A DNA stretch of 56,874 nucleotides, taken from assembly GCA_016208765.1 (NCBI GenBank), contig JACQXK010000015.1, positions 1 to 56,874 on the forward strand, written 5' to 3'. The translations under genes and the position numbers were made by a program. The DNA is from Candidatus Omnitrophota bacterium. Its GTDB lineage: Bacteria; Omnitrophota; Gorgyraeia; Gygaellales; Profunditerraquicolaceae. How positions within the stretch are numbered: the stretch's first letter is position 1; each line of letters starts with the position of its first letter. Under the pieces are notes generated by a model, which searched no databases, was not told where the DNA came from, and saw only the letters and a list, made by a program, of their open reading frames with translations. Shown here one piece after another: positions 3 through 15,435 of the stretch.

Positions 3-1367
3 TTTTCGTTATTTTTATCCAGGACTTTATTATTTTCCCAAACTCAAAACTTCGGTATTAGTTATACTCTTACCGAAGGCGGGACAAAACTTGAGCTTAC
101 ACCGGAAACAAATTACCGCGGTGTTAATGTGGTTGTTAATTCTAATGCTGCTACCCAATATGAAGTGATCCAGAGGATTGTCCAGCCAATTCAAAACCGC
201 GATAATCCTAATCTAACGCTGGGTGAAAATTTAGTGGTGCGTGGTTTAAGAGGCACAAATCAATTTGGGGATTTTCGCATTCCTACTAATGATGTTCCGG
301 TAAGAAATGAGGACAGGCTTTATACTTCCGATTCCGCCGGAGATTCTGACAACTTTACCATTGTTTACGGAATAATTAACATTGATAAGATACCTGCAGG
401 TTATTATCAGGGGCAGATTGCATTTGTCCTGCGCCCTATAAATTCAAACCTTAACGAGCAAACACAATATCTTTATGTGTATGTTGAAGTCAGCCAGCAG
501 GCTGAGACAAAGGCTGCTACTATTGAAATTTCAGGCCCGCTTGGTTCAAGGGCAATTGAGCTTAATCCAAAAAAAGAGGGAATGCAAACAGCGGATTGCC
601 TTGTTAAGATTAACGGAACCTTTAAAGAGAATATTTCACTCAGCCATGTCTTGCAGCGTCCTTTGCAGTCAAACGAAGGAAATCAGGCAGGGCCTGATAT
701 CATTAATGTAGAGGTAAAAGCAGTTAAAGGATTGGGAATTAACAAGCCTTTGCCTTTTGCCGGGATAAGCCAGGATATTTATGCTGCTGATCCGCGTAAT
801 CAGACTGACCAGGATTTTGTGATCACTTACAGCCTCGGGGATGTTTCTAATCTTAAAGCCGGAAGATATACATCGCGTATCGTTTATTACCTCGCAGAAG
901 GCAATAATCCGCCTCGTCCGGTTGGTGAGCTAGACTTAGAATTGCAGATTGACCGGGTTTTTGAACTGGTAATTGCGCCGCAGGAGCAAACAAGCGCAAT
1001 TGAATTTCGCAACCTTAAAGCAGGAGATGAACCAAGGGTAAGCGAGTTAGACTTGGAGGTTAAATCTAATTTGGGTAAGCCTTATCAGGTAACCCAGAAT
1101 GTTTATTCAGATTTAACCGATCCTCAGGGCAATACAATTCCGGGAAAGTATTTCGCAATGAGAACAGAGGGGAGTGCCGATGGGACAAAAGGTAAATTAA
1201 AAGTGCTTGAAGCACAGGAGGTCAAAAAGCAGGATACGATTATGTTTGTTTCAGACAGCAAGGGCTCTCCGGATAAATTTAAAGTTATTTATGAGTTGAC
1301 TATCCCGGAGGATATAAAGGCGGGAAATTACGCGACAAGAATTACTTATTCATTGGTTGAATTGTAA
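3..1367 (+). CDS. 5'-truncated secreted multi-repeat beta-sandwich protein (putative fibre/adhesin subunit)
   Basis: The frame of the listed 129..1367 ORF has no stop codon back to nt 3, so the gene enters from upstream. It has at least three ~130-aa repeats, each ending in a G-x-Y-x3-I-x-[FY]-x-L strand (AGYYQGQIAFVL, AGRYTSRIVYYL, AGNYATRITYSL). No enzyme motifs were seen. Confidence 0.7.
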   Translation, partial: FSLFLSRTLLFSQTQNFGISYTLTEGGTKLELTPETNYRGVNVVVNSNAATQYEVIQRIVQPIQNRDNPNLTLGENLVVRGLRGTNQFGDFRIPTNDVPVRNEDRLYTSDSAGDSDNFTIVYGIINIDKIPAGYYQGQIAFVLRPINSNLNEQTQYLYVYVEVSQQAETKAATIEISGPLGSRAIELNPKKEGMQTADCLVKINGTFKENISLSHVLQRPLQSNEGNQAGPDIINVEVKAVKGLGINKPLPFAGISQDIYAADPRNQTDQDFVITYSLGDVSNLKAGRYTSRIVYYLAEGNNPPRPVGELDLELQIDRVFELVIAPQEQTSAIEFRNLKAGDEPRVSELDLEVKSNLGKPYQVTQNVYSDLTDPQGNTIPGKYFAMRTEGSADGTKGKLKVLEAQEVKKQDTIMFVSDSKGSPDKFKVIYELTIPEDIKAGNYATRITYSLVEL

Positions 1368-1387
1368 CATAGCGAGAGGAGGGTAAA

Positions 1388-2095
1388 ATGAAAACGAAAA
1401 CTTTGTTAAAAAAAATATTGAAAGGGGGTGAAGTAGAAATGAAAAAGATACTTATCGTAGTTATGGTTGTAATGGCGGTAGTTGTAATGACAGGGAGAGA
1501 TTCTTTTGCGGCATTAACTCAAACGATTAATGTAACCGCTACTGTGAATCTTGTTACAGCAAGTATGGCAGCAACTGTCCATCAGGTTAATTCTCAGGGT
1601 ACATGTAGCTACGTTGATGATAAATGGAACACTACGCCTCAGCCGGGAATTACTTTTGGAACACTTGATCTGGACCCAGTATACAACATTTTTCTGCCCA
1701 GAGATAATAGTTATTACGCAGTAGATGTTGCGGTTGTGGATAATAGCGGGTCAAACTGGACGGTTACTCAGACGCGTACTGATTTTAAACTTGCAGGCGG
1801 GACAGCCACTCTTAATGATAATGTTAATGTTGTTTTTCAGAAAGTTGTGAAAGGCGCTTCAGGTTTACCACAAGATGATATAGCAACTGATATAGTGAAA
1901 TACAGCTATACTGACAGCAACAACAAGGCAATTACAAAAGCACAGGTAAGCGGAGGTTGGTTGAGGATACTCTATGGTATTGGAACCGGAAATACCACTG
2001 CGGGCTGTACTGACGCAACTGGAGTAACTCCAATTACATTAGATAAGCCGGCAGGCGCTTATAGCGGAACAGTAACTTTAACTCTTACTCCGTAA
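1388..2095 (+). CDS. small secreted pilin-like subunit (SCPU/DUF4402-like terminal strand)
   Basis: SD GAGGAGGG lies upstream. An alternative ATG at 1439 gives the classical signal peptide MKKILIVVMVVMAVVVMTGRDSFA. An ITFGTLDL motif is present, and the C-terminal strand AGAYSGTVTLTLTP echoes the repeat ends of the upstream gene. Confidence 0.7.
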   Translation: MKTKTLLKKILKGGEVEMKKILIVVMVVMAVVVMTGRDSFAALTQTINVTATVNLVTASMAATVHQVNSQGTCSYVDDKWNTTPQPGITFGTLDLDPVYNIFLPRDNSYYAVDVAVVDNSGSNWTVTQTRTDFKLAGGTATLNDNVNVVFQKVVKGASGLPQDDIATDIVKYSYTDSNNKAITKAQVSGGWLRILYGIGTGNTTAGCTDATGVTPITLDKPAGAYSGTVTLTLTP

Positions 2096-2183
2096 AGAGT
2101 GATTTATATTTAGGTAAGGAAAAGTTAAAAATAAGTTTACAGGCTGCTAAATTATTGTAGAATAACTCTAAAGGAGGAGTTTT

Positions 2184-3059
2184 GTGTTTTATTTAAAAAG
2201 AGCTTTCTTAGGATCATTGTTTACCCTTTTTTTCTTAGGTAATGCCCTTGCTTTAACTCCTCCTTTCCTTGATAAGCAAAAGATCAGGCTATCAATCGCT
2301 CCCGGGCAGGCTTCGTATGGGGATATAGTAATTGAAAATCCTTCAGAAACTTCCCGTAAAATGCGGGTGTATCTGGAAGATTGGTCATATGCTCCGGGAG
2401 GAGATGGCTCAAAGAATTTTGCTCAACAAGGAAGCAGCGTTTCTTCTTGCGCTCCGTGGATAACTTTTTCTCCCACTGAATTTACCTTGCCTGCTTTTGG
2501 TAAACAAAGAATAAGTTTTTCAGTAAAAGTCCCCTCTGATGCAAAAGGGACCCATTATGCGATAATGTTTTTTGAAAGTAACGTTGGAGAAGTCCAGGAG
2601 AACGCTCAGGGTTTTAGCGGAGGATTGAACTTGGCTATAAGGGTTGGCGCGCTTTTTTATATTGAGGCAAAAGGAACCATTAAAAGAAGCGCTATGATAG
2701 AGAACCTGAGCGTAAAACGGGGAAACGCATCTAACCCGTTAACGGTTCAGGTAGATTTAAAAAATTCAGGAAACACGGATATTACTGCAGGCGGTTCGTT
2801 TCATATTATGGATGATGAAGGTTTGATCTTTGCGCGCGGTGAATTTGGTAATGCTTATACATTTGGCGGTGAAACTGCCAAGATGTCAGCAGCTTGGAAA
2901 GAAAAGATCCCTGCCGGAAAATATCATTTGGTTATAACAGTGGATATTGGAAAGGCTCTTGAAGAGCTTAATTTAGGAAGGGGCCCGGTTATTATAAAGG
3001 AAACTGAAATTGAAATTGGCCCTGATTCAACCGTGCTTAAGGCCGGTGAGCTAAATTAA
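2184..3059 (+). CDS. periplasmic two-domain beta-sandwich protein, putative fibre chaperone (PapD/DUF916-like by pattern only)
   Basis: GTG start follows AAAGGAGG. A signal peptide is present (LFFLGNALA). There are two Ig-like halves (LSIAPGQASYGDIVIENPS..RVYLEDW and LTVQVDLKNSGNTDI..GKYHLVITVD). It sits between the subunit genes and the OM protein gene. Confidence 0.6.
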   Translation: MFYLKRAFLGSLFTLFFLGNALALTPPFLDKQKIRLSIAPGQASYGDIVIENPSETSRKMRVYLEDWSYAPGGDGSKNFAQQGSSVSSCAPWITFSPTEFTLPAFGKQRISFSVKVPSDAKGTHYAIMFFESNVGEVQENAQGFSGGLNLAIRVGALFYIEAKGTIKRSAMIENLSVKRGNASNPLTVQVDLKNSGNTDITAGGSFHIMDDEGLIFARGEFGNAYTFGGETAKMSAAWKEKIPAGKYHLVITVDIGKALEELNLGRGPVIIKETEIEIGPDSTVLKAGELN

Positions 3060-3065
3060 CCCTTG

Positions 3066-6000
3066 ATGAAGAAGACCCTTCTTATAGGCACGTTGATTCT
3101 TTCTTTTTTTCTGTTTCAATCCCCTCTTTATGCCTTAAATCAAATCCCGGAATTACTCTGTGAATTAGGTGTTAAATTATATCGCAGCGGAAGATATGCT
3201 GAGGCCTTACATGAGTTCAAGAAAGCCCTTATTGCCAATCCTAATTATATTCCAGCTAAAAAATATATTAAAATGATGGAGCAGGCTAATCTTGCCGAGC
3301 CTGAGATTGTGCCATCTACTTTTAAACCTATCAGCCCTGAGCCAAAGGGCGCTATGAATGAGCTTTTGGATTTAATTGATTTGCAAAGAGAAATGATCCG
3401 GGATAAAGAGTTGATCCAGGTGGAAACGGTTAAGAAAAAAGAGAAGCCTGAAATACCAGCTAAGAAGAAAATTAAGAAACTCAAGACACCGGTTGCAATT
3501 ACCAAGCCGGCTAAGGCGGAAGTTAAACAACCCCAGCCTATTGTCCAACCGAATAAACCAATTGTTGTGCGGCCTAAGCCAGTTGTCAAACAAGATGTGC
3601 AGCCAGCTAAGCAGGGAATTCAGCCAACGGAAATAGTGGTAAAACCATCAGGAACGGCTATTGAGCCAACTAAACTGGCTGAGCAACCAGCCAAGACAGC
3701 AGCTGTTCAGTCTTTAGAGGAAGTTATACAGCCGCCGGAGACAGTTTCCCTGCCAACTACGACAGCTGGTTCTTTGTCATTGCGCGAGGCTAAAGAAAGC
3801 GAAGCAATTTTACTATCAGAGCCTTCAGTGCCTCTTGTAACAGAAAAGAAAAAAGTAAGGGAATTTAAGCCTGCTGAACAAAATGTTATTACTTTAGATA
3901 ATTCGTTAAGCTCTATTCCAAGCCCGATAGAAATTGAAATGGGCAAATCTTTTATTATCAAGGGGAATAATATTTCGCGATATTTAATTACTCAGCCTAA
4001 GTTGGCTAAAGTTCAAAAGAATGGCCCTAATGAATTAATTGTTACCGGTGAAGAGGTTGGTTATACCCAGCTTTTTGTCTGGGATGATTCCGGCCGTTGG
4101 AGCATGGACTTTTTGGGGATACTCCCAAAGCCAGAGGGCCCTACTTATGAAGAGACAATCCGCAAAGAACAGGAGAGGTCGCGGAATTTTCGTTTAAGAT
4201 ATAATCTGGATTGGGTAACTTATGAAGCTGGTAAAGGTGTTTCAGATTTAAAAAGAAGTTCTTATTACTGGACGCATTCTTTGTCGTTGAATGGCCCTAC
4301 TCCTTACGGCGATTTAGATTCTGCTTTTACTATACGCAGGTTAAATATTAATACTGACCTTACTTATCTTACCTTTGGCCTGACTAACGGAGTTTTTGGT
4401 AATTTTAAAGGGTTTAGCCTCAGGGGCATGGATTACAATCCGAATTTTACGAATTTGGCTTTCCAGGGAACTACTTTGCGCGGAGTGATGTTTTCTTCAC
4501 CTGCGTTTAATAATAAATTTAATTATACCACATTTTGGGGAAGAGAAGGTGGTGGCCGTTATGGAAATCTTTCTCCTACTCTTTCCAAAACAGAAAATTC
4601 GTTTATAGCAGGAACTAATTTGCAATATACGCCTACTGACAAACAAAATTATAAATTTACTGTTGTTCATGGCTGGGGCAGGGACAGGGAACCTCTTTTA
4701 AATAAATATGATTACGATTTAATGGGAGACTGGAAGTTGAACAAGCTTTGGGGAATGGGTTATGAAATTGCAAACGATTCTGAAAGATTCGCCCATCTTT
4801 TTAATATTCGTTACCGTAAGCCAAAACTTAGCTTTACTACTGAGCTTCGCAATATTGACAAAGCCTTTAACAGTATTACCAGCCGAGGCTGGAGGCAGGG
4901 TGAATTGGGTGCGTTATTAAATTTAAATTACCAGCCTACTGAAAAATTAAGGATCACCTCAAGCCTTGATGCATACCAAGACAGGCTGTATCCGGCGCTT
5001 GATAATCCCCAGCGCTGGAATCAGGATTTCAATTATAATATGTCTTATCAGGTAGATAATCTGACTGGGGTAAATCTGAGCTATCTTTTGAATAACGACC
5101 AGGGCCGTCTTTCTGAAATACGTTTTCAGAGCCCGGGAATTGGCATCAACAGAGATTTTAATTTATTTAAGAAGAGGCTTTCAACTTATTTTAATTATTA
5201 CCATCAGGAGAATACAAATTTTACTGCGCACAGCGTTGATTATGTTAATGATAAATATTTGGCAGGCCTTCGTTTGGGTATTTTTGGAGGCTTATATTAT
5301 TACGCTAACAAAGAATATAACATGGTAATTGAAGAATCTACTTCAACCCACGCCAATCCTAATGCTTTTGAAACCGGCCTTGACTGGTCCGATCAAATAG
5401 GCAAGACGCCGTTTTTTGGAAACTTACGGTTTACCTATCGCGATGAGGAAGAAACAGATACAAGGATATCATTTTTGTCAGGTCAGGATTATATAGAGGG
5501 TTATTCAAGGTTATCGTATAAACCAAACGCCGATACTGAGGTTTATGGCTCTGCTCGTTTTCGCAATTTATGGGCGGATAATCCTCTGGTAACCAAGGGT
5601 GTTAATATGGATTTTAACGCAGGTATTCGTTATTCCTGGGATACCGGTGTTCACTGGGATGCAGTGGGTAATATTGAAGGTTATGTTTTTAAAGATTTTA
5701 ATTCTGACGGATTAAGGCAGCGCGATGAGCCTCCGGTTGAGGGCATAAAAATATGGCTTGGAAAAAATAAATTTCAGGTAACTGATCTGTTTGGTTATTA
5801 TAAATTTAAAGGTGTCAGGGCGCGTAAGGCGTTCGTCAGCCTTGATGCGACTACTTTGCCAAGAGGTTATATTGTTACCGTGCCTTTAGTGCAAGAGGTT
5901 CCGATTATAAATCATCGCACGCAAAAGGCTGATTTTGGCGTTATTTCCGAGACAGAAATCAGTGGGTGTATATTTGAAGATATTGATGGAAATGGCGAAT

Positions 6001-6245
6001 ACACAAAAGAGGACAAGGGTGTTGCAGGGATTGTGGTAACTTTAGAAGATGGTTCTAAATCAATTACTGACGTCCGCGGGAAATATTCATTTAGAAACGC
6101 AACTCCCGGTGAACATGCTATTAATGTTGATATAAATACTATTCCGGTTTATTATCTGCCGCAAAAAGCCCTGAAAAAACAAATCACCCTTTTTGAAGGG
6201 GTGAATTATGTTTTTGACTTGCCTCTAAAAAGAATTGAAGAGTAG
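3066..6245 (+). CDS. large outer-membrane protein: signal peptide, TPR, Pro/Lys/Gln-rich linker, pilus/secretin N-terminal-like domain, beta-barrel, two C-terminal SdrD-B/Cna-B-like domains
   Basis: ATG at 3066 gives MKKTLLIGTLILSFFLFQSPLYA. A TPR-like segment is present (YRSGRYAEALHEFKKALIANPNY). ITQPKLAKVQKNGPNELIVTGEEVGYTQLFVWD resembles the pilus-formation N-terminal domain. A long stretch of alternating aromatic beta strands follows. The C-terminus has GYVFKDFNSDG..YYKFKGV and GCIFEDIDGNGEY..GKYSFRN. Confidence 0.7.
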   Translation: MKKTLLIGTLILSFFLFQSPLYALNQIPELLCELGVKLYRSGRYAEALHEFKKALIANPNYIPAKKYIKMMEQANLAEPEIVPSTFKPISPEPKGAMNELLDLIDLQREMIRDKELIQVETVKKKEKPEIPAKKKIKKLKTPVAITKPAKAEVKQPQPIVQPNKPIVVRPKPVVKQDVQPAKQGIQPTEIVVKPSGTAIEPTKLAEQPAKTAAVQSLEEVIQPPETVSLPTTTAGSLSLREAKESEAILLSEPSVPLVTEKKKVREFKPAEQNVITLDNSLSSIPSPIEIEMGKSFIIKGNNISRYLITQPKLAKVQKNGPNELIVTGEEVGYTQLFVWDDSGRWSMDFLGILPKPEGPTYEETIRKEQERSRNFRLRYNLDWVTYEAGKGVSDLKRSSYYWTHSLSLNGPTPYGDLDSAFTIRRLNINTDLTYLTFGLTNGVFGNFKGFSLRGMDYNPNFTNLAFQGTTLRGVMFSSPAFNNKFNYTTFWGREGGGRYGNLSPTLSKTENSFIAGTNLQYTPTDKQNYKFTVVHGWGRDREPLLNKYDYDLMGDWKLNKLWGMGYEIANDSERFAHLFNIRYRKPKLSFTTELRNIDKAFNSITSRGWRQGELGALLNLNYQPTEKLRITSSLDAYQDRLYPALDNPQRWNQDFNYNMSYQVDNLTGVNLSYLLNNDQGRLSEIRFQSPGIGINRDFNLFKKRLSTYFNYYHQENTNFTAHSVDYVNDKYLAGLRLGIFGGLYYYANKEYNMVIEESTSTHANPNAFETGLDWSDQIGKTPFFGNLRFTYRDEEETDTRISFLSGQDYIEGYSRLSYKPNADTEVYGSARFRNLWADNPLVTKGVNMDFNAGIRYSWDTGVHWDAVGNIEGYVFKDFNSDGLRQRDEPPVEGIKIWLGKNKFQVTDLFGYYKFKGVRARKAFVSLDATTLPRGYIVTVPLVQEVPIINHRTQKADFGVISETEISGCIFEDIDGNGEYTKEDKGVAGIVVTLEDGSKSITDVRGKYSFRNATPGEHAINVDINTIPVYYLPQKALKKQITLFEGVNYVFDLPLKRIEE

Positions 6246-6250
6246 CTTCT

Positions 6251-6568
6251 TTACCTGCTGTAAATAGTCTGAGTGTTTACCTGTTGCATGTTCCCGTCTG
6301 CTAATTGAATTTCTCTTTCATTTTCCTGCTGAATTAATTCCTGCGATTTTGTCTCGGATTCATTTTCAGTGTAGTTTTTTTCTTCAGCAATAACTTCATT
6401 ATTTTTCTGTTCATTAGCGTTCCTGTAAGGTGGAGCATTCACCCCGGGTATAGCGGGTATTGTGCAGCTCATTGCAATTGAAACAGTGTTTCCTGCAAAA
6501 CAATTTCCGGCAAAGGCCAGTGCTAAGAGCGTTAAAACCGCTACTTTCATAAGTATTTCTTTTTTCAT
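6251..6568 (-). CDS. small secreted protein with acidic/Gln-rich tail, unknown function
   Basis: The internal ATG at 6568 is preceded by AGGAGGCGGA and gives the signal peptide MKKEILMKVAVLTLLALAFAGNCFA. The gene is convergent with the OM protein gene, with stop codons 5 nt apart. Confidence 0.6.
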   Translation of the reverse strand: MKKEILMKVAVLTLLALAFAGNCFAGNTVSIAMSCTIPAIPGVNAPPYRNANEQKNNEVIAEEKNYTENESETKSQELIQQENEREIQLADGNMQQVNTQTIYSR

Positions 6569-6816: not shown

Positions 6817-9800
6817 TTATGTTGTTTTCAAGGCAGGCGAAGAAAAATATACTTCTATTGTGTTTATTTGCCGGTTCCTTAGTTGTTCTGCAAAAGGTTC
6901 AGGAATGGTATTGGAGTTTATTTCAACGGGATTGTTATCTTTGTCGCGAAAGGTTATTTTATTAATTTTTGCGCAGTTTTTACCAAAAGTATCCGCTCTG
7001 CCCTTATTATAATATATTACCTTAATATTACTAAACAGGTTAAAGGTGTATGTTTTTTCTTTTTTGGTAAACATCCAGCCTGGTAAACAGGGGGAAAGCT
7101 TGAAATTTAAGTTTCCAGATTCGTTAACAAAAAAAGGCTTTTTTCCAATATTCATCAAAAGCCACATTTCTATAAATTCAGCAGTTGACCCGGAAAGCCT
7201 TGCAACAAAACCATTGCCATGAAGTTTTGTATCGGGGAAGGCGCTTGAGACAATAAATGATGAATTTTCAAGTATACTTCTGCCGTAGCGTTCTGGTTTT
7301 TGGAAAGGTATCAGCAAATTTTTAAATTCCTCAAAGAATTCTTCGTTGAGCCCTTGTTTTAAGAGTTCAAGCAGGTATTTATATTCCATGTGCAGCCAGA
7401 TTGACTCATTTTCAAGCCAACCCGGAGTAAAGACTCTGCATCTTCCGATTTCTTCAGGCATGCTGTTAAGTGATGCTGTTACTTTATACATTTTAAGTTT
7501 TTTGTCAAAAAGCTCACTGTTCTTAGTCGCCTTATACAGTTGTTGCGCTGTTTTTTTATCTTCTGAAAGCCGCAAGGCATGCATTTGTCCTTCTAAGAAA
7601 TGAGGGACTCTTTTTTGGGTAAATTTCTTTGGTTTAAAAGAGTGCTCGCTAATAGTTTCATATTCTGTAACTTCGTGAAAGAAATAGGAGCAATAGATAT
7701 TGATTTTTTTATCCAATCCTTTTTCAATGGCAAGATTCACTTTACGCAGTGCATTTTCAATGATGATCAGTAATTCCGGGGAGTCAATTTCAGGTTCGCT
7801 GCCAATGAAGCCAAAATGTATTTTTTGCCTGTAATCTTCCTTGAGAGAAGCGCTGCTATCCCAATATAAATAATCTTTTTCATCGGATGTTCCAATAAAA
7901 TAGTTATTAATCAATGAGTTAATTCCGACGAGAAGATCATATATTTCCTCGGTTACCTTAACTTTCTTGACAGTGGTTTTTTCAAGAATAGACTCAATTA
8001 TTAAGATCAACCGTTTTAATTCAAATGTTTCGCAAAGAGAGGAACCAAAGAGCGCAGGCAGGCCGTTCAAGGCATCGTACCAATTTGGTTTTTCAGCTTC
8101 CATTTCAATTCCGCAGCCGGATGGGTCAAAGGAGGATAATTTGTTTGCCAAAAGGCAAAGCAGCTTGTTTATTAATGTTGTCTGATAAATTTCTCCCTGA
8201 CCAAAAGAGGATCTTGCCACATGCGGCTGTTCTGAGCGTTTTTTAATTAAATCTTTTTTAGCGTTGTCTATTTTTAAGGCATGCAACTGGCGAGGCAATC
8301 CGTTATAAAAAACATATTTCTCAGAGCGGGGTTTAACAACCTCCCAATTATCATAAAAGGTAAAAGCTCTTTTATGGAAAATAATTTCTTCTGATTTTTC
8401 CGGATAAATCGATAAATAGCTTTCTAAAAGGTCAAGATTGTATGTCCAGTGGTCTGTCCAAAAGCCTTCGCCGTGTTCTGCATCTTGAATTCTGGTGGAG
8501 TTATGAATAAGAATCCCCAGAAAATCATCATAAGAAATTATCGGTTTTATGCGGTGTTCTTCTAAAAATAAAATTACCTCTCCTGGCGAAAAAGGCTTTT
8601 TGGTAAAACTGATGATTTCTCCAAGTTGTTTGTCGTTAAGGCAATCTTTTAGAGAGTTTCCTAATTCAGGTTCGTTTTTAAGTAAGAAGACAGTGCCTTT
8701 AATTGTCAAAGGGTTAAACCCGTCTGCCTGGATCAGGTTAAAGAAATCTACCAAATTAGTTTCCTTGATTTCAGGGTTAAACCAGAGGTCTGACCTGCGG
8801 TTCTGGTTCATATCGCGATAACTACCGTTTCCTTGAGAAAAATAAGCCGGTTGAAGTTGAAATTTGTTGTAATCTCTTTCCAAGTCTCCGTGTTTTCTGG
8901 AGTATAAATAGAAGACATTTTTTTGTTCAGAAGAATTAAAAACAACCGGGTATCCGCCGCGTAAAATATTATCAAGATAGGTATTTTTGGCGTATAGATC
9001 AAACTCGCGCGAACTGCTTTGGGTTTGGATATCTTTTTGCAGGTTTGCGATTAATTCCTGATTTTCCTTTTGTTTATTTCTGAAATATTCAGCAGAGGCA
9101 ATGCGCTTAATTGCTGAGTTAAGTGTTGCAGCGCTGCGCATCTGGCCGCTTACTGAATAGATGTTTTTCTCGCTATTTCCGGCTATCTGGAAGTCAGCAA
9201 ATAAAAAAGCGCAGGGAGTTTTGCTGGTGACTTTTTCGTTTTTAGGCGGCATGAACCTGGAATTATCCTTGAATTTATCCGGGAAAGCAAAGTCTGTTAC
9301 TTGGCCAAATATATTTTCAGGGTCTGTAATAGGTTTAATAATCCTTGTTTTGTTCTTGTCTTGATAAAATCCTAAATAAAAGTTTCCTTCTTTAATATGC
9401 ACGACTTCCGGCCTGTCGTGCGGTTGAACTGCTAATTTATAGAAGGGAGCATTATTTTCAAGATTTTCCACGCGCATCCAGGCTTCAATGGTGCGGCCGA
9501 GTTTTTTGAGGAAAAAATTCGCTGTTCCAAAAGGGACGATTTGCGGAATACCGTCTAAGATTTGTATCTTCTTAGGAGTGCGGCTCAGGTTTTTAATACT
9601 AACGATTCTGGCTAATCCTGCATAATTGTCATTTGGAATATTGAAATATTCTACTGTAACTTTAATTCCAAACGTTGTATTTGTCTCTTCAAGGCGAAGC
9701 CCTTCTGGAAGAATGTACATTGCATTTGAGATCTTAAAGCCTGAATTGTTCAGGGTAGCTTGAAAAGGTTCGTAAAAATAATCTTTCTTTGCGGATGAGA

Positions 9801-10071
9801 TTTTAAGAAAAGTGCGGAAACCGCAAGATGAAACAGCCTGCCATGCTTTGTTTGCCGGCTGAAATTCCATGATAGCATGGTCCTTGTCTTTGGTGCCGAA
9901 ACTGCATACACATTGCGCCCTGTTTACATAAAAAACCCACATTGGAATACCGTATTTTCCGGCAATTCCCGGGAAGAAGTTAGCAAACGGCTTGGAAAGG
10001 TTGTAATTTTCTATGACAAATTCGCCTGATGAATTAAGATGATATTTTGTTTTTTCTGTGGTTTTAGCCAT
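6817..10071 (-). CDS. large cytoplasmic protein, GH94/cellobiose-phosphorylase-like (alpha/alpha)6 superfamily (tentative)
   Basis: 1084-aa ORF with SD (GGAGAAATC) and no signal peptide. Motifs FANFFPGIAGKYGIPMWVFYVNR and GSYRDMNQNRRSD resemble the R-D-x-N-Q-D region of glycoside phosphorylases as I recall it. The function is not secure. Confidence 0.45.
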   Translation of the reverse strand: MAKTTEKTKYHLNSSGEFVIENYNLSKPFANFFPGIAGKYGIPMWVFYVNRAQCVCSFGTKDKDHAIMEFQPANKAWQAVSSCGFRTFLKISSAKKDYFYEPFQATLNNSGFKISNAMYILPEGLRLEETNTTFGIKVTVEYFNIPNDNYAGLARIVSIKNLSRTPKKIQILDGIPQIVPFGTANFFLKKLGRTIEAWMRVENLENNAPFYKLAVQPHDRPEVVHIKEGNFYLGFYQDKNKTRIIKPITDPENIFGQVTDFAFPDKFKDNSRFMPPKNEKVTSKTPCAFLFADFQIAGNSEKNIYSVSGQMRSAATLNSAIKRIASAEYFRNKQKENQELIANLQKDIQTQSSSREFDLYAKNTYLDNILRGGYPVVFNSSEQKNVFYLYSRKHGDLERDYNKFQLQPAYFSQGNGSYRDMNQNRRSDLWFNPEIKETNLVDFFNLIQADGFNPLTIKGTVFLLKNEPELGNSLKDCLNDKQLGEIISFTKKPFSPGEVILFLEEHRIKPIISYDDFLGILIHNSTRIQDAEHGEGFWTDHWTYNLDLLESYLSIYPEKSEEIIFHKRAFTFYDNWEVVKPRSEKYVFYNGLPRQLHALKIDNAKKDLIKKRSEQPHVARSSFGQGEIYQTTLINKLLCLLANKLSSFDPSGCGIEMEAEKPNWYDALNGLPALFGSSLCETFELKRLILIIESILEKTTVKKVKVTEEIYDLLVGINSLINNYFIGTSDEKDYLYWDSSASLKEDYRQKIHFGFIGSEPEIDSPELLIIIENALRKVNLAIEKGLDKKINIYCSYFFHEVTEYETISEHSFKPKKFTQKRVPHFLEGQMHALRLSEDKKTAQQLYKATKNSELFDKKLKMYKVTASLNSMPEEIGRCRVFTPGWLENESIWLHMEYKYLLELLKQGLNEEFFEEFKNLLIPFQKPERYGRSILENSSFIVSSAFPDTKLHGNGFVARLSGSTAEFIEMWLLMNIGKKPFFVNESGNLNFKLSPCLPGWMFTKKEKTYTFNLFSNIKVIYYNKGRADTFGKNCAKINKITFRDKDNNPVEINSNTIPEPFAEQLRNRQINTIEVYFSSPALKTT

Positions 10072-10136: not shown

Positions 10137-10164
10137 TTGCGGTTAGTAAAAAGTGTGCTATAAT
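10137..10164 (+). promoter_or_regulatory. sigma70-like promoter for the HEPN/MNT pair
   Basis: TTGCGG, then 16 nt, then TGcTATAAT (extended -10). The predicted TSS is about 2-3 nt before the ATG at 10174, implying a nearly leaderless mRNA. Confidence 0.45.
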
Positions 10165-10173
10165 AATTGGCAT

Positions 10174-10569
10174 ATGAGCGATAATGCTAAATATCTTAAT
10201 GAATGGTTGCAACAAGCTGAATATGATTTGGCCACAGCTAAAGCAATGCTTGATGCTGGCAGGAATATTTATTGCGTATTTATGTGTCACTTATCCCTTG
10301 AAAAAGCGCTTAAAGCAGCTTATTTGAAGAAAATTGATAAGGTTCCTCCTAAAATCCACAGTCTTATATATTTAGCGCAAAGTTCAGAGGTATCTTTAGC
10401 AAAGGATCATAAAGATTTTATAGAGAGTCTTGATGAGGTGAGCGTTCCTGCAAGGTATCCGACGGAGCTTGATTCAGCTTTAAAGGATTATGATAAAAAT
10501 AGGACGGAAGGGATTTTCAATAAAAGCAGGGAGATATTAGAATGGCTGAAGTTAGAATTAAAGAAGTAG
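10174..10569 (+). CDS. HEPN domain protein
   Basis: LQQAEYDLATAKAMLDAGRNIYCVFMCHLSLEKALKA and VPARYPTE are typical of PF05168-type HEPN. The listed GTG at 10153 lies inside the promoter, so I prefer the ATG at 10174. Confidence 0.8.
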   Translation: MSDNAKYLNEWLQQAEYDLATAKAMLDAGRNIYCVFMCHLSLEKALKAAYLKKIDKVPPKIHSLIYLAQSSEVSLAKDHKDFIESLDEVSVPARYPTELDSALKDYDKNRTEGIFNKSREILEWLKLELKK

Positions 10570-11049: not shown

Positions 11050-14000
11050 ATGTCAAAAAAAATCAATAAGGTGGTAGCGTTATTTTTAACAATTTCATTT
11101 GTTTTTCAGCAGGTTGGCTTTGCGCAGATCGCTGGTGTAGAGTTAAATTTGGCAGGCGCTTTGGTAAGAATGCAGGGTAATGTGGTTACGGATAAATTCC
11201 GCCCTGCGCATATGAGATTTTTCTCTTATGACAGCCTGCATAATAATTTTAAGCTGATTTTGGACAAAGGTGACCTTAAAAATCTTAAGGGAACTGAACT
11301 TGATAATGTTTCTAAAGAATTGATGAATTATTTTTTGGTTGGGGTTACTTTAAACAACGATGCTTTTTGGGTAAACTTACGCCCAGACTCAGAAAATGAA
11401 ATAATTGATAATTTATTGGCTAAAACTGATGTGGGTAAAATTATGCTGGAAGCAGATCTTGAGCTTAAAAAAGATACTGCAAGCTTTACCTCTCCACAGA
11501 CCACTGAAGGCAAAGCTTATTGGAATAAATTATATAAGAAGGCAGAAGAGTTGTTTGGTTCAGATCAGATAACTATCCCAACTTTAACCCGCCCGTGGAT
11601 TGTGCCGGATGAAGTAATTGTGCGTGAGAATAAGGATTCGGCGTATGTTTACAAGGCCAGCTTGAAAGTGATGCTGGAGCAGGATCATTTGAAAAATTCG
11701 GTAAAGTATTCTTTTAAGGATCCGCGGCAAAAAGAATTAAATGAATACTCCAGTCAGTTGATCCGGGAGTTGATCATTCCAAAACTTAATAGGGAGGTAA
11801 ATACATCCAAGAAATATTCCCAGCTAAGGCAGGTTTTATTTTCATTGATACTTTCTCGTTGGTTTAAGAGCCGTTTTCAGGGGAAAGCAGGTGATTACGC
11901 GGCATTAATAAATAAAGCTAACCTGGCGAATCTAACCTCAAAAACTGCCTGGTCAGCAACTACTTATTTTAAAGCCTACCAGGAGTCTTTTAATAAAGGT
12001 GAATATAATATAAAGGAACCGGTTTACACGCCTACAGGCCAAGTGATCAGGAGTTATTTTAGCGGTGGCGCTGATTTAACTGGAAAATCTCTCCCAGCAT
12101 TTGGAAACACAGCAGCAAGCCCGTTAGGATTTGGAGCATTGCCCGGCATAGGAGATATTACTAGTGCGTTAAAAAACAATCGGGACATGGTTTCTGTAGG
12201 TGGCGCTGATAAGTCAGCAGCCAGCCCGATATCAGCCGAGTATGCTGCACAAATGCTCAAGAACATACTTTCCCGGTTAGAAGATGAGTTAGATACAAAT
12301 CTATTAAATCAAGCGCGTAATCTGCTTGAGAATGAACCACTAAAGACAGCACTGCACCAAAAAGATCAGGTATATCAAAATCAGGGTTTTATTAATCAAG
12401 TAATAAATATATTTCTGGGTATTAAAATAAAAGGCGAGCGGACAATCCCAGAATTGCAATCAGTATTAACTATTGGCAGTCTAATAAGTAGTAATTTTCT
12501 TCAACAACTCTCAGGCAAGTTTTTGGAAAGAATATATGACCAGGTTCGTGGTTCCTTTGTTGAGGAGAATATAAGGAGTATGGCAATTCTGTTTGATAGC
12601 GAACTTGGAAGGTCTTTCTTAAATCCAAATTCATTTAAGAAGCTTATAGAAATATTCTTGAGTAATGTAGTGTCAGAGATAGACAATATGATGCCACCAC
12701 CATCATACAAGAATGATGAAAGATTAATTTTAATAGAAAGATATGGTTCTAAGGTATTGAAAGATTTTATTATTCCTAACTGTCGGTTTATCATTGGTGG
12801 ACAAGACACTGGTATTTTTGATACAGTGCTTAGTAACTTAGATGATATTGGGCCAGGTATTGATATTAAAAATGAGTTTGACAAGATGAATAAAGAGCAG
12901 TTTATTAAATTCTACAATCATTTATTCTCTGCGCTATTATTTTCTAAAAAGCGTACCGTTGACGGCGATAACAAAATTATTGAACAAATAAAAGATATAT
13001 CATCGGTATATTTTTCGGGATCCTCTCCGCTGCAGTCAGCAGGAAGCCCGGTGGAGGATAATGAAGCTTTAAAATTGCTCTCCGGATACGTACGTGACTT
13101 TAAGGATGCTTTTAATCGCTGTATGAGAGAAATATCCCAATCTGTTATTGGTATAACATCCTCTAGTGGTTCTGTCGGGCTTGTAATGAGTGGAAGTATA
13201 ATAGATGGATCTCTTGGTACAATGAGAACATCTATTGATGAATTAGATAAGTTTGAATTAGAGAATGTTCCTAAGGATAGAATTAGTACCTATTTGACTA
13301 CATTAGGAGCGCTTAAAAAAGAAGTTGAGAGTGCCGCGAAAAATGATTCTGTTAGAAGGAATGACTATCATAGGGTTCAAGCGCTCGTTTCAGAATTCAT
13401 TGATAAATTAACTGGTATTCAGAAGGTTCCAAGTGGTCCACAAGCGGGATCATCTAGCCCGGTTGGGGAAGGCGCTTCATTTAAAGCCACAGATATGAGT
13501 AATGCTTTTCTTAGATTTAAAGGGACGCTCAATCTAATGCCGGAAGTTAATAAACAAAGGGGAATGAGGCCTGGAAATCTCGCTCTTGCAGTTTCTACTG
13601 AAGCATTAGAAGAAACCCTTAACATTCTTAAGGATATTCTTGAAGGAGTAGATGTTTTGATAGAAAAAGCAGAAATAAATCGGGCGTTGGATCTTTTGAG
13701 AAATTACAAAGAACAGCTTAAGGGTGATTTGGACCCGACTGGTCCAATGTATAAATATCTTTGGTTAATAAGAGATGCTGATGATGCTATTGGAAAAGCT
13801 ATTAAGAAATTGGAAGGAAAATCGGCGGCTTCTAGGGGAGGAGCAAGCAGCGCATTGTTAAATGATGGCTCCGCGAAGGAAAGGGAAAAAATATGGCAGC
13901 CCGATGAGATAGATGCGGCAATTGCTCAGGCTGAGAAAACTAATGTGACTGGTCCGAATACTAATGATGATTATCGTGCTGTTGTTCGTTTAGCTGATAT

Positions 14001-15435
14001 TTCGGGAATGAGCGAAGGTCAATTCCGGAAAGTGGAAAGATTATTATTAACCTTAGTTACAACAGAAGCTTCTGGGAAATTATTAGGAGTAATGGCCGAA
14101 AAAACTTTGGCCGCAGTGCGCGCCAATCATTCGCGATTTTCCCATGCGCAATCTGTTAAGCAAAATCAGCCGGTAGTTACAGGCTTTCTTCGTGAAACAC
14201 AGTCTCCCAAAGAAATTGAAACTATTATCAGGCTATTCTCCGGGTTGTTAGAAGAATTGCAGTATTCAAAAGGGAACGAGCCTGAGAGGCGTTTAGCTAT
14301 AGATATGCTGGGAAATTTAGGCGGAATGAACAAGGAGCAATTTTTTAGAGTAGTTGAGACTATTCATAAGTATCTGTTTTATAGTTCGTTTCGTTATTTT
14401 GAAATTGCCGCAGAAAACTTAAGAGGCCTATTTGTATGGTATTACCCAATCAGAGACCCTGAAAATAAAAAGCTTTTTGATAAATTTGAAGAAAATCTTG
14501 ATAGGATTAGAAAGCTGGAAGAAAATGGAGCTGCAGAATCTTCTCGGAAAATCGCCTTTATTATATCCTTGTTGAAAGATTTTGAATTATATAAAAAGAA
14601 TGGAAGGTTTTTAATGCTTGAAGAACTGGCTCCAATAACTACTCCTGTTATTTATAAAAATCTTGCTAAGGATGCGGTTACATATTATGTGCGGGATTTG
14701 GTTAATTCTAACAAAAACAAACCACTGGGCGGGGTGGGGGAGATAAATATTGCTTTACTTCAAGCTCAAATTGATAAGGCTGTTGAGCGGCTTGCTACTT
14801 TTGTGCATGGAGAATTTATTAATGGGCAAATTCCTGTTTATTCGGATGATAGGCAGCAAATTCAGGCATTTATGCAGGCAGCAGGCAGAATATTAGAAAA
14901 CAAAAATTACTGGTGGGTTAAGGCAAGCATTAATCAGGCGGCATATCATATGCGGCTGATTGAAGAGGCGCAACAGAAGGAAGTAATGAGCTCTTCTTCG
15001 GTAAATTCTGATTTAGATAATGTGAAGAGAGCTATTGGGAATGGTGACGAGTCATGGCTTGGGGAGTTATCAGGAAGCTTAGATCCTGAAGCGGCTCGCA
15101 TGGCGCAAAATGCCCTTTCTGATATGCGTAATAGACAAAATCAAAATCCTAGAGGTGATGGTAGATACTATAGTGGCAGGAGAGATACTCCATATTTTAA
15201 TAATGTGAATAGAATTGAAGAGTATTGGAAAGTGAGAGATGACTGGGGCAAGAGTAGAGGTTCTTCTGCTATCACGACAGCAGCGAGCCCTGCTGGTTCT
15301 CTTGATTCCAGTGGGATTTTAGATGTTGCTGCAATGGCGGATTCGGGATTTAATTACAAGGAAGAATATTCGTGTTTCCTCGCCATTAGCCACAGACTGG
15401 ATTTACTTGCGAGACAATTTCAAAAATATCTTTGA
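11050..15435 (+). CDS. modular secreted protein of unknown function (frame A, 1461 aa)
   Basis: AAGGAGG SD. Signal peptide MSKKINKVVALFLTISFVFQQVGFAQ. Helical modules are separated by Ser/Pro linkers (AASPLG, AASPISAEY, GSSPLQSAGSPVED, GSSSPVGEG, AASPAGS). It ends TGA TAA. Confidence 0.8.
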   Translation: MSKKINKVVALFLTISFVFQQVGFAQIAGVELNLAGALVRMQGNVVTDKFRPAHMRFFSYDSLHNNFKLILDKGDLKNLKGTELDNVSKELMNYFLVGVTLNNDAFWVNLRPDSENEIIDNLLAKTDVGKIMLEADLELKKDTASFTSPQTTEGKAYWNKLYKKAEELFGSDQITIPTLTRPWIVPDEVIVRENKDSAYVYKASLKVMLEQDHLKNSVKYSFKDPRQKELNEYSSQLIRELIIPKLNREVNTSKKYSQLRQVLFSLILSRWFKSRFQGKAGDYAALINKANLANLTSKTAWSATTYFKAYQESFNKGEYNIKEPVYTPTGQVIRSYFSGGADLTGKSLPAFGNTAASPLGFGALPGIGDITSALKNNRDMVSVGGADKSAASPISAEYAAQMLKNILSRLEDELDTNLLNQARNLLENEPLKTALHQKDQVYQNQGFINQVINIFLGIKIKGERTIPELQSVLTIGSLISSNFLQQLSGKFLERIYDQVRGSFVEENIRSMAILFDSELGRSFLNPNSFKKLIEIFLSNVVSEIDNMMPPPSYKNDERLILIERYGSKVLKDFIIPNCRFIIGGQDTGIFDTVLSNLDDIGPGIDIKNEFDKMNKEQFIKFYNHLFSALLFSKKRTVDGDNKIIEQIKDISSVYFSGSSPLQSAGSPVEDNEALKLLSGYVRDFKDAFNRCMREISQSVIGITSSSGSVGLVMSGSIIDGSLGTMRTSIDELDKFELENVPKDRISTYLTTLGALKKEVESAAKNDSVRRNDYHRVQALVSEFIDKLTGIQKVPSGPQAGSSSPVGEGASFKATDMSNAFLRFKGTLNLMPEVNKQRGMRPGNLALAVSTEALEETLNILKDILEGVDVLIEKAEINRALDLLRNYKEQLKGDLDPTGPMYKYLWLIRDADDAIGKAIKKLEGKSAASRGGASSALLNDGSAKEREKIWQPDEIDAAIAQAEKTNVTGPNTNDDYRAVVRLADISGMSEGQFRKVERLLLTLVTTEASGKLLGVMAEKTLAAVRANHSRFSHAQSVKQNQPVVTGFLRETQSPKEIETIIRLFSGLLEELQYSKGNEPERRLAIDMLGNLGGMNKEQFFRVVETIHKYLFYSSFRYFEIAAENLRGLFVWYYPIRDPENKKLFDKFEENLDRIRKLEENGAAESSRKIAFIISLLKDFELYKKNGRFLMLEELAPITTPVIYKNLAKDAVTYYVRDLVNSNKNKPLGGVGEINIALLQAQIDKAVERLATFVHGEFINGQIPVYSDDRQQIQAFMQAAGRILENKNYWWVKASINQAAYHMRLIEEAQQKEVMSSSSVNSDLDNVKRAIGNGDESWLGELSGSLDPEAARMAQNALSDMRNRQNQNPRGDGRYYSGRRDTPYFNNVNRIEEYWKVRDDWGKSRGSSAITTAASPAGSLDSSGILDVAAMADSGFNYKEEYSCFLAISHRLDLLARQFQKYL

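Follow-up and report, generated by a model that had tools for sequence, protein, structure and literature searches.

The DNA considered here (the window, meaning the whole analysed stretch of 56,874 nucleotides) is contig JACQXK010000015.1 of a Candidatus Omnitrophota bacterium (assembly GCA_016208765.1). At its left end, between positions 3 and 6568, lie five open reading frames (ORFs) for exported proteins, tentatively referred to as p1 to p5, which we discuss as a candidate fibre-assembly locus resembling chaperone-usher (CU) systems:

3..1367, plus strand: p1, the large subunit, 454 amino acids (aa) in the window, running off the left window edge; candidate tip subunit
1388..2095 (ORF), likely start 1439 at a conserved Met18, plus strand: p2, the small subunit; candidate polymerising shaft subunit
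2184..3059, plus strand: p3, a two-Ig-domain periplasmic protein of 291 aa; candidate chaperone
3063/3066..6245, plus strand: p4, an outer-membrane usher-like protein of 1059-1060 aa
6251..6568, minus strand: p5, a small secreted protein of 105 aa (mature ~80 aa); candidate chain terminator or anchor

Five consecutive exported proteins had been described here in an earlier note made from the letters alone, and the ORF list bears this out for all of them. Each begins with a hydrophobic signal-like N-terminus followed by an AxA-type site, as read from the sequence, and none of the five has a lipobox, the cleavage sites of p1, p2, and p5 included. The part of p1 missing from the window amounts to ~10-25 signal-peptide codons only, judging from its alignment with 33 homologues, and p1 homologues are ~460-480 aa long. 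Counted from the conserved Met, p2 has 218 aa, of which ~194 make up the mature protein. In about half of the p2 homologues, this Met is preceded by 17-22 conserved residues (window 1388-1438) with the motif MFKNNNxKQKxxIKEVVK / MKTKTLLKKILKGGEVE in the p2 alignment, which is either an extended n-region of the signal peptide or a conserved leader or regulatory sequence. The p5 gene is convergent to p4, and the two stop codons (6245 and 6251) lie 5 nt apart.

The features of the two putative subunits are as follows:

48..512 (aa 16-170), plus strand: p1 module 1; the mature N-terminus starts at its first strand NFGISYTLTEGG, without an N-terminal extension
462..491, plus strand: extra strand after p1 module 1 (TQYLYVYVEV), presumed in-cis last strand of that module
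513..953 (aa 171-317), plus strand: p1 module 2, including its own extra strand GELDLELQID at 924-953
954..1364 (aa 318-454), plus strand: p1 module 3, truncated, ending in ...AGNYATRITYSLVEL and then the stop; candidate strand-acceptor (pilin) domain
1511..1567, plus strand: mature N-terminal extension of p2, ALTQTINVTATVNLVTASM, with the consensus SQTVNVxATVP; candidate donor strand
2051..2092, plus strand: C-terminal strand of p2, AGAYSGTVTLTLTP, formed by its last residues

The large subunit had been taken to be built from repeated beta-sandwich modules, and three homologous modules were indeed resolved by hhalign on slices of the p1 alignment (A5, 34 sequences). With E-values that refer, here and below, to single pairwise comparisons, module 3 matched module 1 at 99.8% (E 5.5e-29), module 1 matched module 2 at 99.5%, and module 3 matched module 2 at 99.3%. 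The repeats are visible by profile comparison only; BLAST of p1 against itself and against p2 returned nothing. Each module opens with an F-x-L-S/V...EGG-type strand and holds the motif AGxYxxxIxYxL, and RVFELVIAP, with which module 3 begins, is aligned to the N-terminus of mature p1. The alignment of modules 1 and 2 spans their extra strands (columns 3-151 vs. 3-149), whereas module 3 ends ~24 residues earlier, aligning to positions 1-131 of 155 in module 1 and 3-130 of 162 in module 2, with the final strand absent. All 34 p1 homologues end in ...AGDYSTRITYSLxE[IL]. Module 3 is without a strand that its own paralogues carry, and therefore looks like a donor-strand acceptor domain. Its aa 403-450 also gave a weak match to the NCBIfam family CPR_Pam_pilin_C (26.4 bits, against a cut-off of 55), and sub-threshold matches to the same family occur in 14 of the 34 p1 homologues (best 1e-7).

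The p2 family, represented by an alignment (A3) of 14 homologues, is related to these modules, matching module 1 with E 6.5e-6 (85%) and module 3 with E 3.5e-5 (72%). Since the C-terminus of p2 falls at the AGxY strand in both alignments, that is, at the same motif, p2 appears to be truncated as well. The subunits had been open to the objection that they might be complete, self-sufficient Ig folds; as far as the alignments tell, both p2 and p1 module 3 would instead stop before the extra strand of their paralogues. The C-terminal strand AGAYSGTVTLTLTP, to which the earlier note had drawn attention, is exactly the end of p2 and nearly invariant in the 14 homologues (G223, Y225, G227, V229, T230, T232, and L233 are invariant). 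The likeness to SCPU/DUF4402-type pilins that had been read into it did not hold at the profile level at E <= 1; SCPU (PF05229) and DUF4402 (PF14352) gave no match for p1, p2, or 31 diverse p2 relatives at E <= 0.1-1. With the C-terminal PTAGNYSGVVSLVMT of CfaB it aligned over 15 columns (hhalign, P 0.016), in a comparison that is not significant overall.

At its other end, mature p2 carries ~30 residues N-terminal to the module-aligned region, conserved right behind the signal peptide and with alternating hydrophobics, which read ALTQTINVTATV in the window. This extension resembles the in-cis strand TQYLYVYVEV of p1, at which a position-specific scoring matrix (PSSM) of small-subunit N-termini often peaks in p1 homologues, as well as the N-terminus/donor strand VEKNITVTASVDP of CfaB (sequence from the 3f83 alignment). 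Mature p1, starting directly at the first strand of module 1, has no such extension. We infer from these sequence features that the p2 extension acts as a donor strand, and that p2, with a donor strand and an acceptor domain, has the architecture of a polymerising pilin. By the same token p1, with complete N-terminal domains, a C-terminal acceptor domain, and no donor strand, would have that of a tip subunit.

Relatives of p2 are numerous (390 representative clusters at E <= 1e-3) and belong to no Pfam family. Three distant ones (P0305, P0312, and P0339) have a GH26 domain N-terminal to a p2-like truncated module (Pfam 2.6e-13, 1.3e-8, and 4.6e-7), which suggests enzyme-bearing fibre subunits. 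Sequence and profile searches of the PDB with p1, p2, and p4 gave nothing relevant; the sole, non-significant PDB match of the p1 profile was a CfaE-CfaB fusion.

The next gene product, p3, sits where a chaperone would be expected, and one of its strands is of particular interest:

2631..2669 (aa 150-162, LAIRVGALFYIEA), plus strand: last strand of p3 domain 1, from DSSP and pLDDT of the model; candidate G1-type complementing strand

The AlphaFold2 (AF2) model of p3, built on 40 homologues (pLDDT 90.1), consists of two beta-sandwich (Ig-like) domains, in agreement with the two-Ig-domain protein of the earlier note. In a Foldseek search of the PDB, the top matches were WxLIP of Enterococcus (8e-11) and then RbmA, followed by the CU chaperones CfaA, CsuC, FimC, CupB2, EcpB, YadV, and Caf1M (E 1e-8 to 1e-6). 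At least eight different CU chaperones were matched in all, with TM-scores normalised to the target (TMt) of 0.60-0.61 for CfaA and up to 0.61 among the CU chaperones, and the PapD-like/ASH domains of CEP192 were listed as well. According to its model, p3 has the PapD-like two-Ig fold of CU chaperones. By sequence, the sole protein of known structure found from p3 was again such a chaperone, EcpB (phmmer 0.0035; family profile 0.002), and hhalign gave 85% probability and P 6e-6 over 158 columns that correspond to domain 1 and the start of domain 2. No Pfam family reached the threshold in p3 or its 40 homologues, among which weak Fn3_5 matches occur in 19 and weak WxLIP_PGBD matches in 7. One p3 homologue gave a single weak match to DUF4402 (0.026).

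In CU chaperones, basic residues of the cleft (Arg8 and Lys112 of PapD) anchor the C-terminus of the subunit. Three basic residues are invariant in the 40 p3 homologues, namely K33 and R35, both located in the first strand, and R153, which belongs to the strand that ends domain 1. R35 lines up with Arg8 of FimC, within an alignment that is not significant overall, and R153 lines up with an Arg of EcpB. The strand at aa 150-162 has alternating hydrophobics, conserved L157, F158, Y159, and E161 besides the invariant R153, and aligns with ...SARIGTILVV of EcpB. Directly before it lies the only low-confidence loop of the model (aa 137-147), and the combination of loop and strand calls to mind the F1-G1 loop with its G1 strand in CU chaperones.

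The first place of WxLIP among the structural matches brings up another function for p3, namely that of an envelope-anchoring adaptor that holds p1 and p2 on the envelope by beta-hairpin insertion, a mode proposed for WxLIP and WxL proteins, next to an unrelated outer-membrane protein p4. WxLIP (DUF916-DUF3324, from the WxL clusters of Firmicutes) has two tandem Ig-like domains and binds its partner by strand insertion (PMC10599100), and the weak WxLIP_PGBD matches among the p3 homologues point the same way. Because WxLIP, too, works by inserting a strand, the proteins closest to p3 in structure are consistently adaptors that complement a partner with a strand. Unlike WxLIP, which has a C-terminal transmembrane helix (PMC10599100), p3 has none in its sequence. 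Neither p1 nor p2 contains the WxL domains that are the partners of WxLIP. WxL systems belong to monoderm Firmicutes and include no usher or fibre, whereas here the p3 and p4 genes lie side by side or overlap at practically every locus, and p4 has ushers as its closest structural matches. We consider an anchoring role of this kind improbable.

The usher-like protein p4 is composed of the following parts:

3147..3872, plus strand: TPR-like unit (aa 29-62), then a low-complexity linker rich in Pro, Lys, Val, and Glu (to ~aa 270)
3870..4121 (aa 270-353), plus strand: periplasmic N-terminal beta domain, with the Pfam pil_N match at aa 288-345, at the position of the usher N-domain
4191..5642 (aa 377-860), plus strand: beta-barrel of ~26 strands, from DSSP of the AF2 model
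5664..6242 (aa 868-959 and 965-1060), plus strand: two C-terminal beta-sandwiches, SdrD_B/CarboxypepD_reg-like, at the positions of the usher C-terminal domains CTD1 and CTD2

Pfam recognises TPR_2 (5e-6, aa 29-62), T2SS-T3SS_pil_N (8.9e-11, aa 288-345), and two C-terminal domains of the SdrD_B/CarboxypepD_reg type (2.1e-16) in p4, which together with the AF2 model confirms the barrel with pil-N-like and Cna-B-like domains seen before. NCBI names its homologues ‘pilus assembly protein N-terminal domain-containing protein’ or ‘SdrD B-like domain-containing protein’. Across a consensus of 45 homologues the TPR-like segment is conserved and the Pro/Lys-rich linker of ~200 aa is variable. The model of aa 270-1060, built on the same number of homologues (pLDDT 86, pTM 0.62), proceeds from a small N-terminal beta domain through a short helix to a barrel of ~26 strands and two C-terminal beta-sandwiches. 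The p4 N-domain weakly matched 8jvb, a protein of the secretin family, in a profile search (E 0.098, within the N-domain of 8jvb). The top 11 Foldseek matches of p4 in the PDB were all full-length FimD or PapC (E 2e-18 to 5e-14, 760-816 aligned columns), and the best non-usher matches were TonB-dependent transporters and porins at 3e-9 or worse. It had been conceivable that p4 is simply a known porin, LptD, or TonB-type barrel; full-length ushers turned out to be its best structural matches. The earlier note saw no usher features in p4, which stands as far as sequence and plug are concerned and fails for the domain order, which is that of an usher. As modelled, p4 is usher-like in its domain order and not in sequence.

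The presence of TonB-dependent transporters among the lower matches of p4 would also agree with a system for glycan capture and uptake, in which p1 and p2 bind carbohydrates and p4 is the uptake channel, tied to a GH149-like phosphorylase. A GH149-like gene does adjoin p5 in the window, and a putative counterpart does so in two further loci (L003 and L004), and GH26 domains are found at the N-terminus of the three distant p2 relatives mentioned above. The GH149-like neighbour is, however, missing from the other genomic contexts of the block, p4 has no Pfam domain of TonB-dependent receptors or their plugs, and ushers are ahead of transporters by ~9 orders of magnitude in E-value. The GH26 fusions fit enzyme-tipped fibres equally. 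We therefore regard glycan uptake as highly improbable.

The convergent gene p5 encodes the smallest and least conventional of the five proteins:

6437..6493, minus strand: mature N-terminus of p5, GNTVSIAMSCTIPAIPGVN, with the same pattern as the N-terminal extension of the small subunits (TVNVNATVPTMTGGL)

Members of the p5 family consist of a signal peptide, a highly conserved mature N-terminus G[DN]SVTISMSCTIPSIPGVNAP, a variable acidic/polar linker, and a conserved C-terminus ...VxT[IL]Y[ST]R; they carry the N-terminal motif and a tail, and no module. Position by position, TVNVNATVPTMTGGL of the p2 family corresponds to TISMSCTIPSIPGVN of p5. Iterated hidden Markov models (HMMs) of p5 and p2 converge on one set of ORFs, and residues 2-26 of mature p5 align with residues 2-27 of p2 (hhalign, P 0.004, with a low probability over this short stretch). 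A PSSM derived from 89 distinct small subunits, taking 16 residues from the mature N-terminus of each, had its best match at the mature N-terminus in 15 of the 15 p5 homologues listed. The median over 60 homologues was 10.3 bits, a score reached by 0.18% of 1085 control ORFs of similar length, mostly non-secreted, and the 99th percentile of shuffled p5 sequences was 6.9. If the resemblance is functional, p5 would fill a groove and offer none, and so stop growth, perhaps anchoring the fibre by its C-terminal motif. Known terminators of the PapH/FimI type are full pilin domains, unlike p5, which would be a ‘donor-strand-only’ mini-protein of a kind not known to have been described before.

The five genes are not a peculiarity of one contig. 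We found 192 homologues of p3 (40-69% identity) and 157 of p4, all metagenome-derived, and the named ones all belong to Candidatus Omnitrophota/Omnitrophica, which bears out the earlier impression of a lineage far from Proteobacteria. A scan of one genome per GTDB species returned 161 relatives of p3; the best 80 of these are nearly all titled Omnitrophota, a few having generic or other submitter labels. For the synteny survey, ORFs were called in 83 loci and searched with iterated HMMs, which gave 64 adjacent p3-p4 pairs, p4 always coming directly after p3, and the fractions below refer to pairs with enough flanking sequence. p1 is present upstream of p3 at 49 of 50 loci, at least one small subunit of ~200 aa at 56 of 58, and a convergent p5 at 48 of 54. 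The subunit, chaperone-like, and usher-like genes are thus clustered and co-inherited, and the possibility raised beforehand that they might lack co-conservation in relatives can be set aside.

The block was found in three unrelated genomic contexts, adjoining exonuclease VII, dxs, and pyruvate:ferredoxin oxidoreductase (POR) in one (L001), beside bamA and lpx genes in another, and beside lepA and gatCAB in the third (L003). Because BamA, LpxC, and LpxD are encoded on a homologous contig, the host is taken to be diderm. Many loci contain several small-subunit paralogues, and some have two small subunits, two chaperone paralogues (e.g., L003), or extra subunit-chaperone pairs, the latter being a feature also of CU operons with multiple chaperones. 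In L003, a second, more divergent small subunit of 226 aa (8478-9158) ends in GDYSGILTVSTL, and is followed at 9194-9997 by a second chaperone paralogue of 267 aa, for which a PDB search gave nothing relevant. The genome of L003, Omnitrophica WOR_2 SM23_72, is the closest context with a known genome, and the same metagenome-assembled genome (MAG) holds a second locus (P0061). Given these extra subunit and chaperone paralogues and the second locus, several fibre types per genome are likely. A variant order of small subunit-p1-p3-p4 without the convergent p5 occurs in five loci (L064, L067, L068, L072, and L076) with the submitter labels Elusimicrobia, Clostridia, or ‘bacterium’, and may represent a second sub-type or lineage. 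In two of the three unrelated contexts (L001, 15515-16634; the contig of P0110), the block has PilZ-domain genes at its flank, a hint of control by cyclic di-GMP, and a type IV pilin-like N_methyl gene lies near the block in L001.

Taken together, we think it probable that the five proteins form a chaperone-usher-like machine and assemble a surface fibre through donor-strand exchange, with p1 as tip, p2 as shaft, and p5 as terminator. In such a machine, all five proteins would cross the inner membrane by the Sec pathway. In the periplasm, the last strand of p3 domain 1 would cap the open groove of each subunit, p1 and p2. The p3-subunit complexes would then dock on the periplasmic domains of p4. 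p1 would enter first, because it lacks a donor extension, and become the distal tip or adhesin; p2 subunits would be added serially, each placing its N-terminal strand in the groove of the preceding subunit. Finally p5, a donor strand without a groove, would fill the last groove and end growth, and may tether the fibre via its conserved C-terminal motif. The likely use of the fibre would be attachment to surfaces or host cells. These data support the earlier suggestion that the fibre pathway may be of the chaperone-usher type, divergent or new, and that its usher is non-canonical.

The same fold and synteny data would also fit surface display or secretion without polymerisation, with p3 chaperoning p1 and p2, p4 exporting single adhesins, and the missing strand being supplied permanently by p3, p4, or p5. 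Here p5 could serve single subunits as a permanent in-trans strand, and it would agree with such a role that WxLIP and RbmA, which head the list of p3 matches, act as surface scaffolds and that no filament has been observed. We find this alternative rather unlikely, however, in view of the conserved donor-like extension and the acceptor-type truncated module combined in p2, a hallmark of self-polymerising subunits, and of the several small-subunit paralogues in many loci, as in pilus operons.

Several points speak against assembly of a fibre by a chaperone and an usher and have to be weighed with the evidence above. Regarding the usher, the TM-scores of p4 to known ushers are low (0.33-0.40), and usher barrels alone (2vqi and 3ohn) score about the same as TonB-dependent transporters against p4. 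As isolated usher barrels do no better than transporters, the usher signal of p4 rests on the domain order of N-domain, barrel, and two C-domains. Ushers have a plug domain of ~80 residues between barrel strands 6 and 7; the barrel of p4 has no inserted plug, its longest inter-strand segment being ~18 residues in the AF2 strand list. The families Usher, PapC_N, and PapC_C (PF00577, PF13954, and PF13953) have no match in p4 itself, nor do they appear for 120 homologues with precomputed Pfam annotation; a search of the PDB with the p4 profile found no usher, and hhalign of the p4 family against FimD, EcpC, and CfaC was not significant. As for the chaperone, its best structural matches, WxLIP and RbmA, are not pilus chaperones; PapD_N and PapD_C (PF00345 and PF02753) were unmatched in p3 and 40 homologues at E <= 0.1, PapD_N not even weakly, and hhalign of the p3 family against FimC, EcpE, and CfaA was not significant. 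These comparisons with known ushers and chaperones used single-sequence templates and are weak, such that their null results are compatible with remote homology. No component has a Pfam match to PapD_N, PapD_C, Usher, PapC_N/C, Fimbrial, SCPU, or DUF4402. The likeness of p5 to p2 spans only ~25 residues; the control ORFs used for it were for the most part not secreted, and some of the small subunits had entered their set through the p5 HMM. Lastly, the groove, the donor strand, and complementation by the chaperone are read from sequence only, and no filament has been seen.

We therefore class the locus as one that probably works like a CU system but is a variant and not a member of any described clade. 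We classify it in this way because it lacks both sequence-family matches and the plug, and has the chaperone fold, the truncated subunits, the putative donor extension, and the gene clustering, while p4 agrees with ushers in domain order but not closely in TM-score or strand number. Standard family models fail to recognise its parts, which have diverged too far.

Among the known systems, the E. coli common pilus (ECP/Mat, EcpA-EcpB-EcpC-EcpD-EcpE) is the one whose chaperone, EcpB, is detectable by sequence from p3. ECP has a large multi-domain tip subunit, EcpD. It also has two chaperones, EcpB and EcpE, and some Omnitrophota loci likewise have two chaperone paralogues. In contrast, p4 has no similarity to EcpC, a canonical plug-containing usher, and p3 has none to EcpE; the gene order differs, and the ecp operon has no p5-like gene. 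Class 5 (CFA/I, alpha) and archaic (Csu, sigma) pili have a tip subunit of Ig-like domains. Their chaperones CfaA and CsuC are among the best chaperone matches of the p3 model, the C-terminal motif AGxYSGxVxLxxT of p2 matches CfaB, and its N-terminus TQTINVTATV resembles the CfaB donor strand NITVTASVDP. Despite these resemblances, profile comparison with CfaA, CfaB, and CfaC gave nothing significant, SCPU/DUF4402 matches are absent, and p4 is plugless with pil_N, TPR, and SdrD_B-type domains.

FimD and PapC, the best structural matches of p4, share with it the order of a periplasmic N-domain, a large barrel, and two C-terminal beta-sandwiches. They differ from p4 in having 24 instead of ~26 strands and in possessing a plug, and there is no sequence similarity; moreover, the N-domain of p4 is of another family (PF13629), and p4 has an extra TPR unit and the ~200-aa linker. 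Type V pili, exemplified by FimA/Mfa of Bacteroidota, are assembled without an usher from lipoprotein pilins whose pro-segment is cleaved off and whose donor strand is C-terminal. A lipoprotein or type V system was considered and rejected for the present locus, where p1, p2, and p5 have no lipobox and chaperone-like and usher-like genes are present.

Besides the CU systems, the Pam pili offer a comparison. They are recently discovered donor-strand-exchange pili from outside the Proteobacteria, belonging to ultra-small, host-dependent bacteria of the Candidate Phyla Radiation (CPR), the only group in which the authors found Pam pilins (bioRxiv 10.64898/2026.03.03.709456). The family CPR_Pam_pilin_C models the truncated Ig-like domain of these pilins, and for PamR, insertion of its N-terminal strand has been proposed as the event that ends the pilus (bioRxiv 10.64898/2026.03.03.709456). 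The C-terminal module of p1 is weakly similar to this pilin domain, albeit with a score below the family cut-off (26 vs. 55 bits), and the role of PamR is the one proposed here for p5. Pam pili, however, occur in monoderms, without an outer-membrane component and with membrane-anchored chaperones, whereas p3 is soluble and p4 is present in the Omnitrophota system.

A more far-reaching reading, which we put forward only tentatively, joins these points into an ancient, separate branch of donor-strand exchange outside the alpha-to-sigma CU clades, extending across the Omnitrophota, with a plugless usher and p5 as terminator, and serving attachment to a host or prey. In such a branch, gating of the plugless usher might fall to the pil_N N-domain or to the fibre itself, with the TPR arm reaching into the periplasm. 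p5, being donor strand and tail only, would embody a principle of termination and anchoring not known from any diderm pilus, and in some relatives the fibre might carry glycoside hydrolases as tip modules.

The Omnitrophota are abundant, mostly uncultured, very small, and thought to depend on other cells, and we know of no account of how they attach. A literature search, made within one searchable library, found no paper linking Omnitrophota with chaperone-usher systems or donor strands. Conserved phylum-wide, in at least 161 species-level genomes, the putative fibre system described here is a strong candidate for attachment. If our reading of the locus as a donor-strand-exchange fibre machine is correct, it would demonstrate how much drift the chaperone-usher principle tolerates, down to a plugless usher with secretin-type and TPR modules and a terminator that is a donor strand, and would provide a diderm counterpart of the Pam pili. 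At present, all five protein families carry a ‘hypothetical’ or generic name and lack a Pfam model, for which the alignments from this analysis could serve as seeds.

Promoter and terminator scans of the locus gave counts at chance level and were uninformative. The sole terminator-like hairpin, TCACCCTTTTTGAAGGGGTGA (6184-6204, both strands), sits within the 3' end of the p4 coding sequence, in a scan that was overall at chance. The gene next to p5 (6817..10071, minus strand) encodes 1084 aa without a Pfam match and is recognised by the NCBIfam model for GH149 beta-1,3-glucan phosphorylase at 2.6e-37 (128 bits, against a cut-off of 1150). A same-strand ORF of similar length (1072 aa) occupies the same position in L003/L004, matched by length and position alone. 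A functional link between this GH149-like gene and the block was considered and rejected, as the gene occurs only in the closest contexts and is absent from the others. Beyond it lie housekeeping genes, i.e., gatA/gatB, a CtpA-type protease, ftsH, and uvrB. In the 844-aa ORF at 32831-35365 (plus strand), a complete FtsH (AAA and Peptidase_M41) is followed at the C-terminus by a pterin-binding (DHPS-type) domain of which the first half is present; this may reflect a gene fusion, a frameshift, or a read-through. A further large ORF of 1461 aa (11050-15435, plus strand) matched no Pfam family at E <= 1e-4. At 10153-10569 (plus strand), the window encodes a stand-alone HEPN-domain protein (Pfam 1.9e-21), possibly one half of a HEPN/MNT toxin-antitoxin pair.

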